NCBI GenBank assembly: GCA_028704015.1
Contig: JAQVLT010000006.1
Location: forward strand, 10,102-74,101
Source of the DNA: Patescibacteria group bacterium
GTDB taxonomy: Bacteria; Patescibacteriota; Patescibacteriia; Patescibacteriales; JAQVLT01
Reading direction: 5' to 3'
DNA length: 64,000 bases
Shown here: positions 10,250 through 12,222 of the stretch, piece by piece
Position numbering within the stretch: the first letter of the stretch is position 1
How the letters are laid out: every line of letters begins with the position of its first letter
Notes under the pieces: model-generated
The model's database searches: none
What the model was told of the DNA's origin: nothing
What the model saw: the letters and a program-made list of their open reading frames with translations, nothing else
Position numbers and translations under genes: made by a program

Positions 10250-10360
10250 ATTATAGAATTTAGCTAATCATATTATAGCACAATACATTAAAACACAAAA
10301 GCAATCTTCATGGAAGACTGCTTTTAATACTGTTTTAATGTTTTCATGCTTTAATGATTT

Positions 10361-10972
10361 TTACGCGAATTTTCTAATCACCCCTCTAACCACCCCTTGG
10401 ATCAGCGGATCTTGAACATATATCGGCTGCATTGCAGAATTCGCCGGTTGTAAACGAATGCGATTCGGTTCGCGGTAAAATTTCTTGAGCGTCGCATAGG
10501 CATTATTAAGAAGAGCAACTACCACGTCGCCATTTCTTGGCGAGGGATTACGCTCCACGATAACAAAATCTCCGTTCAAAATTCCTTCTTCAATCATTGA
10601 CTCGCCTTTTACTTTCAAGACATAACTATTAAAACTATCAGTGACAAAATCTGCTGGCACGGCAATAGTCTCTGTATCTTCAACCGCTTCAATCGGCTCA
10701 CCGGCCGTAATCAATCCAGCTAACGGCAACTCAATCGCCTCTGCCCAATTAACCTCAGTTTTAACCAGCTCAATGGAACGCGCCTCGTTAAAAGATTTTT
10801 TTAAAAATCCTTTAGCCTTCAAATTGTCCAAATGTGATTGCACGGTCGCCGGACTGGACAAATCAAAATGCTCGCCGATTTCCCGCACTGTCGGCGCGTA
10901 GCCGTGCTTGCGCGTGAAATCATTGATAAAATCCAAAATTTGTCGTTGGCGTTTGGTGAGATTGTTGGTCAT
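10361..10972 (-). CDS. lexA: LexA repressor
   Basis: 203 aa. N-terminal wHTH (GYAPTVREIGEHF) and S24 peptidase motifs GESM and K in TLKKF. Confidence 0.9.
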   Translation of the reverse strand: MTNNLTKRQRQILDFINDFTRKHGYAPTVREIGEHFDLSSPATVQSHLDNLKAKGFLKKSFNEARSIELVKTEVNWAEAIELPLAGLITAGEPIEAVEDTETIAVPADFVTDSFNSYVLKVKGESMIEEGILNGDFVIVERNPSPRNGDVVVALLNNAYATLKKFYREPNRIRLQPANSAMQPIYVQDPLIQGVVRGVIRKFA

Positions 10973-11004
10973 ATTTTTGAAGTTAGTTATATTTTTGAAA
11001 TAGA

Positions 11005-11610
11005 CGCCCAGCCATAAATGGCCGAGCTACGTTCTTCCGCAAGCCCCATTAATGGGGCTTTGATTTTCTAGCCCAATCCGTTTACGGTTGGGCGATTGGG
11101 ATATATTCCAATATTTTTATAATATTATTTTCACCGTGATGTTTATTTTGATTCTGAATATAACTTTTAATAAATGGCGTCCCATTACTGCTTAAAGTTA
11201 AACCTCCAAATCCTTGTTGCCATTGGATGTATTTTTCTCCAAATATATTATTAATCTCGTGCGCGCTATATCCCTTTATTTGACCAACAAAATCCGATAA
11301 ACTAATTTGTGGCGGGACAGAACATAATAAGTGACAATGATCTAAATAGCTATTGAATTCAATTACTTTACTGCCCAAATTTTCACTTTTTCCGCAAATC
11401 AACCTACTTAATTTTTTGCTTATCTCCTCATCAATCAATCTCTGTCTATTTTTTGTACACCAAATTATATGGTAATATAATTTATAAAAATTATGTGGCA
11501 TATTTTTTCCTTTCACGCCGCCCAGCCATAAATGGCCGGGCTACATTTTTCCGTAAGCCCCATTAATGGGGCTTTTATTTTTATTAGCCCAATCCGTTTA
11601 CGGTTGGGCG
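11005..11610 (-). mobile_element. IS200/IS605-like unit: Y1 transposase gene bracketed by two about 90 bp triple-hairpin repeats in direct orientation
   Basis: Repeats at 11005-11094 and 11519-11610 are near-identical. Each holds three hairpins (GCCCAGCCATAAATGGCCGGGC, AAGCCCCATTAATGGGGCTT, GCCCAATCCGTTTACGGTTGGGC). Confidence 0.75.
11082..11516 (-). CDS. IS200/IS605-family Y1 (HUH) transposase TnpA, RAYT-like
   Basis: 144 aa. YHIIWCTKNR N-terminus, HUH motif DHCHLL, and C-terminal catalytic Tyr context SYIQNQ. The last codons lie inside the flanking repeat. Confidence 0.85.
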   Translation of the reverse strand: MKGKNMPHNFYKLYYHIIWCTKNRQRLIDEEISKKLSRLICGKSENLGSKVIEFNSYLDHCHLLCSVPPQISLSDFVGQIKGYSAHEINNIFGEKYIQWQQGFGGLTLSSNGTPFIKSYIQNQNKHHGENNIIKILEYIPIAQP

Positions 11611-11648
11611 AAGATGGCTAGCAATTCCTAAATCATAAATCTATTTAT

Positions 11649-11677
11649 AGTATACCCGAACAAAAAACGAACGTCAA
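11649..11677 (-). promoter_or_regulatory. sigma70-like promoter (TTGACG-17-TATACT) with a GTTC-N7-GTTC direct repeat in the spacer
   Basis: Minus strand reads cTTGACGTTCGTTTTTTGTTCGGGTATACT. On the plus strand, GAAC is at 11658-11661 and at 11669-11672. Confidence 0.55.
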
Positions 11678-11730
11678 GAAAAAAATAAAACCTTGAAAAC
11701 TTTGGCTAATATTCAAGGTTATTTTGCTAA

Positions 11731-12222
11731 TTATTTACCTAAAAATTTCAACGCTTCTTTGATTACTTTTACGCTATCCACAGAGTTATAAAATTTAATC
11801 TTATCAACCTCACCCAAGTTAATCCATTCTGCGATATCGGCATATCCTTGCTCATCTTCATCTAGATACTCTTTTGATAATTCCCCGCTAACTTTTTCGC
11901 ATAAAAAATACATAAGCTGGCAATTCCAATATCCTTTAACAAAACTCGGCGTAAAAAAAGAACTCTCGCAAACAACCGTCCGGCCGCGTTTTATTTTTAA
12001 TCCGGTTTCTTCCCAAAATTCTCTCTCCAAAGCTTCATTAATTGTTTCAGCAATCTCAACTCCCCCTCCCGGAAAATCATAGCCGTCCCATTGTTTAGAT
12101 AATAAAATTTTTCCGTCCTCAATCAAAATGCCATAAACCGAGGGACGAAAAATAAGTTCGCTCGCATCAACTTCTTTGTTTTCGCCATGCATATCTTGGC
12201 AGATTACTTTTTCTTTTGACAT
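11731..12222 (-). CDS. NUDIX hydrolase
   Basis: NUDIX box GGGVEIAETINEALEREFWEETG. Confidence 0.85.
   Translation of the reverse strand: MSKEKVICQDMHGENKEVDASELIFRPSVYGILIEDGKILLSKQWDGYDFPGGGVEIAETINEALEREFWEETGLKIKRGRTVVCESSFFTPSFVKGYWNCQLMYFLCEKVSGELSKEYLDEDEQGYADIAEWINLGEVDKIKFYNSVDSVKVIKEALKFLGK

Follow-up and report, generated by a model that had tools for sequence, protein, structure and literature searches.

An IS200/IS605-type element probably inserted between a predicted LexA operator and lexA in a Patescibacteria group bacterium

Introduction

LexA control of mobile-element genes is well known. Among insertion sequences the cases are few: the HUH transposase genes of ISCR1 and ISCR8 are repressed by LexA, as established by EMSA and reporter assays, whilst LexA control of Tn5 and IS10 is debated (PMC13393415). 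In the IS200/IS605 family, TnpA recognises subterminal hairpins formed on one strand of the element (PMC5027513, PMC6006769). For IS608, insertion occurs into the lagging-strand template, and stalled forks at repressor-operator complexes as well as highly transcribed DNA attract the element (PMC5027513). Transposition of ISDra2 is triggered by irradiation, an effect attributed to the supply of its ssDNA substrate (PMC2806898).

Patescibacteria LexA is listed, in a passage of PMC7739468 citing the work of Sanchez-Osuna, Barbe and Erill (Environ Microbiol 2017, doi 10.1111/1462-2920.13826), among the LexA proteins that evolved to recognise a direct repeat. The same patescibacterial SOS study is also cited in PMC8565304. 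GTTC-N7-GTTC is given in PMC8565304 as the direct-repeat LexA motif of Alphaproteobacteria, and it is also the LexA box of Acidobacterium according to the introduction of that paper and reference 53 of PMC7739468.

Here we describe the lexA locus in a 64-kb stretch of patescibacterial DNA (64,000 nucleotides, hereafter the window). Lineage, regulator and direct-repeat type are those of the 2017 study, a likeness that rests on the papers citing it together with our comparative data, and the location of the repeat within the lexA promoter is what autoregulation in that SOS network would predict. Its core is identical to the alphaproteobacterial and Acidobacterium box, a direct GTTC repeat with a 7-nt spacer, although the phylum differs. 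At the patescibacterial sites, unlike the alphaproteobacterial box, conservation extends further (TTCG, a T-rich spacer and GTTCG), in a position fixed between the -35 and -10 hexamers, and one patescibacterial subgroup has three GTTCT repeats with an 11-nt period.

A transposase gene of the HUH superfamily lies behind this operator. As in ISCR1 and ISCR8, the operator overlaps the promoter predicted to serve the transposase gene. Those elements carry their own LexA box and promoter, whereas the element in the window has no box and would borrow the host lexA promoter by virtue of its insertion site. With ISDra2 and IS608 (structures 2xm3 and 2a6m) it shares the Y1 TnpA fold and motifs, hairpin ends in direct orientation and membership of a family that depends on ssDNA. 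It differs from them in lacking tnpB and in having ends built as 91-93-nt modules of three hairpins rather than a single subterminal hairpin. Moreover, ISDra2 is induced via ssDNA supply and not through LexA control of tnpA, whereas LexA control is predicted for tnpA in the window. Both the class of operator motif and SOS-controlled transposases were already known; what is new is an IS200/IS605 element without a LexA box of its own in the lexA operon, downstream of the host operator. This is a further instance, confined to one population, of a known kind of system.

Results and discussion

The lexA promoter and the insertion behind it

Coordinates of the features at the locus are collected in Table 1. 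An initial annotation of the window had proposed a near-consensus promoter on the minus strand, TTGACG and TATACT separated by 17 nt, with GTTC-N7-GTTC in the spacer. Both proposals hold. The minus strand reads cTTGACG-TTCGTTTTTTGTTCGGG-TATACT, which a promoter scan scored as matching 10 of 12 consensus positions, and a pattern search located the core, GTTCGTTTTTTGTTC, at 11658-11672 as the sole copy in the window. The core starts at the last G of the -35 hexamer and occupies most of the spacer. An operator placed between the -35 and -10 hexamers is the classical geometry for repression by promoter occlusion. The annotation had also likened the box to the form known from Alphaproteobacteria. 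The identity of the core stands, and no borrowing needs to be invoked since this form is conserved across Patescibacteria. From the comparison with relatives given below, the segment is very probably the normal, ancestral autoregulatory lexA promoter of the lineage, with a predicted LexA operator.

Table 1. Features of the lexA locus, in coordinates of the window
Feature	Position	Strand	Evidence or sequence
Terminator-like hairpin beyond lexA	10326..10296	(-)	promoter/terminator scan
lexA, 203 aa	10361..10972	(-)	Pfam LexA_DNA_bind and Peptidase_S24, NCBIfam TIGR00498
18-nt tandem duplication of lexA start region	10964..10999	(-)	TTCAAAAATATAACTAAC then TTCAAAAATATGACCAAC; direct repeat, 89% identity
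Right-end module, same three hairpins as left end, direct orientation, 91 nt	11005..11095	(-)	repeat search
tnpA, Y1 (HUH) transposase, IS200/IS605 family, 139 aa	11082..11501	(-)	PF01797, 99.9 bits
Left-end module, three stem-loops, 93 nt	11519..11611	(-)	GCCCAACCG..CGGATTGGGC, AAGCCCCATTAATGGGGCTT, GCCCGGCCA..TGGCTGGGC
lexA promoter, sigma-70-type	11649..11677	(-)	-35 TTGACG 11677-11672, 17-nt spacer, -10 TATACT 11654-11649
Putative LexA operator	11656..11673	(-)	CGTTCGTTTTTTGTTCGG; direct repeat GTTCG-N6-GTTCG; exact motif and PWM of relatives
Hairpin and T-run after Nudix gene	11684..11725	(-)	inverted-repeat arms 11684-11697 and 11712-11725
Nudix hydrolase gene, conserved upstream neighbour of lexA	11731..12222	(-)	PF00293; synteny in L087, L088, L090
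DnaA box, one mismatch	11774..11782	(-)	TGTGGATAG; inside Nudix 3' end, about 100 nt upstream of -35

The lexA product passes the TIGR00498 equivalog model with 192.8 bits (cut-off 110.95), and its DNA-binding and peptidase domains score 72.9 bits (PF01726) and 100.8 bits (PF00717). The motifs AGEP from residue 90 (A90-G91), GESM from residue 123 (Ser125) and LKK from residue 162 (Lys164) are present, which we take, by the pattern of E. coli LexA, to be the cleavage site and the catalytic Ser/Lys dyad. The protein thus has both the self-cleavage site and the dyad expected of a LexA repressor. Upstream, the hairpin and T-run that follow the Nudix gene have a homologue in L087/L088 and in L085, and are likely a terminator insulating the lexA promoter from upstream transcription.

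The promoter is separated from lexA by the transposase gene and its two end modules. The leader between the promoter and the left module is 37 nt long, and only 32 nt lie between the edge of the right module at 11005 and the lexA ATG, in agreement with the spacing first annotated. GCA_028707515.1 and two Logan assemblies contain the 2 kb around this region at 100% identity. The transposase is missing from the closest relatives, in which the order Nudix-lexA-response regulator is the same: L087/L088, with 91% LexA identity, and L090, with 95%, which comes from a sister run of the same study. The promoter-operator of L087/L088 is nearly identical to that of the window (gCCTTGACGTTCGTTTTTTGTTCGGTTATAAT), whilst L090 keeps the operator and the -10 hexamer with a diverged -35 and spacer (ctCTTGTTGTTCGTATTATGTTCGTGTATAAT). 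A tblastn search with TnpA against the leaders of 42 related loci with a located operator gave matches only in the window's own species. Of the 42 leaders measured, 18 place the operator about 28-75 nt from the ATG; in the window the distance is 700 nt. With 11005-11611 deleted, the -10 hexamer would stand 70 nt from the ATG, inside the range of the relatives.

Because the closest syntenic relatives keep the promoter-operator without the transposase, we conclude that the 607-bp unit 11005-11611 is very probably an insertion into the lexA leader that is specific to this lineage, and it is oriented as lexA is. This agrees with the initial annotation, which had proposed that a Y1 unit inserted into the lexA leader and that its removal would place the promoter about 70 nt from lexA. 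It had also suggested a comparison with relatives lacking the insertion, and these (L087/L088 and L090) retain the promoter-operator, with no Y1 gene in the leaders of the GTDB relatives. We considered a 118-aa Y1 protein in L002/L003 as a decaying copy and rejected it, since the DNA is 100% identical to the window and gene calling alone differs.

The element is flanked by ...CCATCT-element-TCTATT..., with no clear target site or duplication, and the leaders of the relatives are too diverged to give an exact empty site. In the 18-nt tandem duplication of the lexA start region, the upstream copy has ATA at the position of the ATG; the duplication directly adjoins the element's right end, where it lies in the 32-nt spacer and runs over its edge. 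Target duplication is not expected of IS200/IS605 elements.

Co-transcription of tnpA and lexA

We put at roughly 0.7 the probability of the whole reading, in which an ancestral LexA-controlled promoter received an IS200/IS605-type insertion and tnpA-lexA would now be under LexA control. In this scheme, LexA would bind the direct repeat in the promoter spacer and block RNA polymerase. Upon DNA damage, RecA filaments would stimulate LexA self-cleavage and so free the promoter. Transcription from the lexA promoter would then cross the whole element, both modules and tnpA, before reaching lexA, making tnpA a member of the SOS-induced lexA operon. Transposase would consequently be made when its ssDNA substrate is abundant. 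Binding of the site by LexA and damage-induced transposition are both what we infer from the sequence. If true, the locus is an example, anchored by comparison, of a host SOS promoter captured by an ssDNA transposon, with the transposase timed to its substrate.

That tnpA and lexA are co-transcribed seems fairly likely. In the scans the element showed neither a recognisable promoter of its own nor, on the lexA strand, a strong terminator. On that strand, no sigma-70 match of at least 10/12 turned up in the stretch from the operator promoter to lexA. The initial annotation had argued that the gap between the element and lexA leaves no room for a separate lexA promoter, and the scan indeed gave no convincing promoter there. 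In relatives, the same promoter is followed by 100-550 nt of leader that is rich in hairpins or carries a gene, which indicates that lexA can be expressed in this lineage from behind a long structured leader.

It is unlikely, by comparison, that lexA has become uncoupled from its old promoter. Under such uncoupling, lexA would be driven mainly by a cryptic promoter in the tnpA ORF or the right end. The hairpins would terminate or process the transcripts begun at the old promoter, which would then serve tnpA alone, or nothing useful. The hairpins at both ends are indeed very stable (RNA folding gives -50.9 kcal/mol, z -4.2, for the left module and -45.7 kcal/mol, z -5.4, for the right), and three of them per end could pause transcription or be processed. 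In Salmonella IS200, the left-end hairpin blocks incoming transcription, which counts in favour of uncoupling. In the window, however, no T-runs follow the left-module hairpins on the lexA strand, and only the opposite strand gives the H2 hairpins a terminator score. The third hairpin of the right module and its flank (GTCTATTTCA / GUCUAUUUCA) do form a weak intrinsic terminator on the lexA strand, at 11027-11006 just before lexA. As for a new promoter, there is a 9/12 promoter-like match at the start of tnpA (11501-11474), and cryptic promoters could be hidden in the AT-rich tnpA ORF. Promoter-like matches in the region are at chance density (12 found against 9.9 expected), and both the lack of any match of 10/12 or better downstream of the operator promoter and the long leaders tolerated by relatives argue against uncoupling and for a shared tnpA-lexA transcript.

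Identity of the inserted element

TnpA scored 88.6 bits against the NCBIfam IS200/IS605 model NF033573 (cut-off 55). Its motifs are intact, the HUH motif being DHCHLL and the catalytic Tyr lying in SYIQNQ. The best solved relatives are ISDra2 TnpA (2xm3, the top match) and IS608 TnpA, and both motifs align with them; in the ISDra2 alignment DHCHLL pairs with DHVHLL and SYIQNQ with KYIESQ. The protein is thus a Y1 HUH transposase with an HUH motif and a single catalytic Tyr, as in the IS200/IS605 family. The ends also have the form of this family, with subterminal hairpins on the same strand at both ends and no terminal inverted repeats, although three hairpins per end are unusual. The two modules are direct repeats, 92-94% identical, and the tnpA stop codon sits within the first hairpin of the right one.

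Close relatives of TnpA are few: a word-indexed search gave three proteins, and an exhaustive search gave nine clusters below 1e-30. Many of the top-scoring homologues (P0124, P0126-P0128, P0130, P0131 and others) are 270-300 aa long with two tandem Y1 domains. These may be single-chain forms of the obligate TnpA dimer.

Modules of the same kind occur at other loci. In L091 (2460-3990), a 54%-identical TnpA lies between tandem arrays of modules whose three-hairpin layout is the same but whose stem sequences differ. L182 (1030-1128) has a solo three-hairpin module without a gene, and L094 (1290-1690) has two copies of a related module. They suggest a family of modules, PATE-like or REP-like, that accompanies this TnpA clade. 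When six modules were aligned, 10 of 17 predicted pairs showed compensatory changes. Taken together, the sharing of modules with L091 and L182 and the compensatory changes suggest that the ends belong to a structure-conserved family tied to this TnpA clade. The middle hairpin, when sought in a metagenome scan, proved to be a common terminator-like palindrome in unrelated soil contigs, with only L182 and L094 of relevance.

Such arrays and the solo copy resemble REPs, and raise the alternative that the Y1 gene and its modules are a resident, domesticated REP/RAYT-like system that maintains dispersed hairpin modules and lies beside lexA by chance. The single tnpA copy in the 64 kb, and the finding of the exact protein at this locus only, would fit such a system. 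We nevertheless consider this improbable. The RAYT model NF047646 scored 23 bits against a cut-off of 80, compared with 88.6 against 55 for the IS200/IS605 model. The modules are in direct orientation, as for IS200/IS605 ends, whereas those around RAYTs are inverted. Furthermore, the window holds no further copy of the module, and the gene is missing at this locus in the closest relatives. A RAYT/REP identity was rejected on model score and repeat orientation, as the element lacks the features that define RAYT membership, and we retain its assignment as an inserted IS200/IS605-type element.

No Rfam family scored above threshold in 10800-11900. A sub-threshold match to the Acido-Lenti-1 sRNA (11521-11573 on the plus strand, 20.7 bits against a gathering score of 37, E = 0.04) lies opposite tnpA's strand across hairpins 3 and 2 of the left module, and is probably a resemblance of hairpins only. 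The gene tnpA is on the G-rich strand, GC skew being about -0.2 on the plus strand. If the G-rich strand is the leading-strand sequence, the active strand of the element would be on the lagging-strand template, as reported for the family (PMC5027513).

The operator across patescibacterial relatives

Taken by itself the bare motif is not significant, because GTTC-N7-GTTC was found once in the 64-kb window against 1.05 matches expected by chance, and 70 of 100 shuffles contained at least one. It is the comparison with relatives that takes the site beyond chance. We compared 80 lexA loci from GTDB species representatives, together with the loci of the three closest LexA proteins. A near-identical sequence, cTTGACnTTCGnTTTTTGTTCGnnTATAAT, was found upstream of lexA in about 50 patescibacterial loci. 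The consensus cTTGAC(t/a/g)TTCG(t/g)TTTTTGTTCG(t/g)nTATAAT occurred, one copy per locus, in almost all patescibacterial loci down to about 60% LexA identity. The LexA of the window is 75-83% identical to many Patescibacteria LexA proteins, making a shared DNA specificity a reasonable assumption.

A position weight matrix (PWM) was derived from the lexA-upstream sites of the relatives, leaving out the window's own species. With the 22-nt PWM the window site scored 35.5 bits, against 15.3 for the runner-up in the window and a maximum of 17.2 over 50 shuffles. The 18-nt operator-only PWM gave 30.0 bits for the same site. This shorter matrix found a site of at least 20 bits at the lexA promoter in 44 of 53 related loci. 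Outside lexA promoters, it gave just two matches of at least 16 bits in the 314 kb scanned. Unrelated metagenomic DNA (759 kb) contained two matches at 16.4-16.5 bits and none that reached 20 bits. About 50 uncultivated genomes thus independently confirm the form and position of the patescibacterial LexA operator.

There is accordingly next to no chance that the repeat is a coincidence in a T-rich spacer, or that the promoter belongs to the transposon: the bare count would allow it, but the 29-nt promoter-operator is conserved upstream of lexA in dozens of transposon-free genomes and the PWM score is far beyond the range of the shuffles.

The PWM scan found no second operator in the 64-kb window, and no other SOS genes were found in it. 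Amongst the relatives, operator-to-ATG distances range from 28 to 550 nt in about 50 loci, and in several a second operator follows the first at about 33 nt downstream. L021 (2489-2870) and L023 (about 200 nt upstream of lexA) have a second operator in opposite orientation, with its own -10 hexamer. It precedes an 81-aa ORF with a weak DUF6504 match and a gene with a Bro-N domain (DinD-like), divergent from lexA. This Bro-N/DinD-like gene, in L021 and L023, was the only context other than lexA in which the operator was found among the loci examined. It is likely an additional member of the SOS regulon, a hint that the motif serves other damage-inducible genes. A Patescibacteria LexA operator is expected to be conserved upstream of lexA and of other damage-inducible genes and to overlap the promoter, and the sites found agree with this, at lexA and at this one further gene.

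A different arrangement was seen in L029, L031, L039, L041, L042, L046, L051 and L052, in which GTTCT is repeated two to three times with an 11-nt period and the series ends 2-3 nt before the lexA ATG. In L039, L042, L046 and L051 the full GTTCT-N6-GTTCT-N6-GTTCT abuts the start codon. This proximity to the ATG implies a nearly leaderless lexA mRNA and a multi-repeat operator.

Plasticity of the lexA leader and DnaA boxes

The median gap in front of lexA is 250 nt, compared with 90 nt for the other gaps of the same loci (Mann-Whitney p = 1e-5; a crude test, as operon-internal gaps are included). The lexA leader is unusually plastic in this radiation, which bears on how streamlined episymbiont genomes house mobile DNA whilst keeping an essential regulator.

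Several kinds of insert were observed in these leaders. In at least seven relatives (L026, L027, L030, L036, L044, L047 and L085), a 23S_rRNA_IVP gene (four-helix-bundle, bAvd-like) lies between the LexA-controlled promoter and lexA; for L026 and L047 the assignment was made from sequence reading and leader distances. The proteins are 41-55% identical among those compared, and the genes would be SOS-regulated. In L085 (2524-2907) the gene is flanked by the inverted repeats agacagctagacagctag ... ctagctgtc..gtctagctgtct. MITE-like elements with terminal inverted repeats (TIRs) are present in the leaders of the two closest relatives without tnpA, at L087:2730-2960 and L090:1160-1280, their TIRs being TGTCATTCCCGCG...CGCGGGAATGACA and TGTCATTCCGG...CCGGAATGACA. 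Elements of the form AAAATTCCC-hairpin-GGTCAAAA occur in at least nine lexA leaders. The recurrent pattern AAAAATTCCC - GC-rich hairpin - GGTCAAAA lies between promoter and lexA in L005-L008, L014, L015, L017, L020 and L025, and could represent either a small mobile element with a hairpin or an RNA structure conserved in the leader.

A tentative and rather doubtful extension is that the lexA leader serves in Patescibacteria as a preferred docking site for small hairpin or ssDNA-type mobile elements and small genes, the cargo gaining SOS-inducible expression. If LexA on the operator acted as a roadblock to forks or transcription, ssDNA could become exposed in the leader, as shown with IS608 at repressor-operator arrays (PMC5027513). 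This leader-hotspot pattern, together with that of the DnaA boxes, is the part of the analysis most deserving of dedicated study.

A perfect DnaA box (TTATCCACA / TGTGGATAA) was found no more than 80 nt from the operator in 39 of 51 relatives (promoters of L005-L054). It takes one of two fixed geometries, at +33 to +47 or at -19 to -45 from the start of the operator. The 9-mer is usually the sole such copy in the 6.6-kb locus, its overall density being 0.16 per kb. This suggests that DnaA may also act on lexA expression in Patescibacteria. In the sub-lineage of the window the DnaA box lies further out, 100-130 nt upstream of the operator and within the Nudix 3' end; it has one mismatch in the window and is perfect in L085, L087 and L090.
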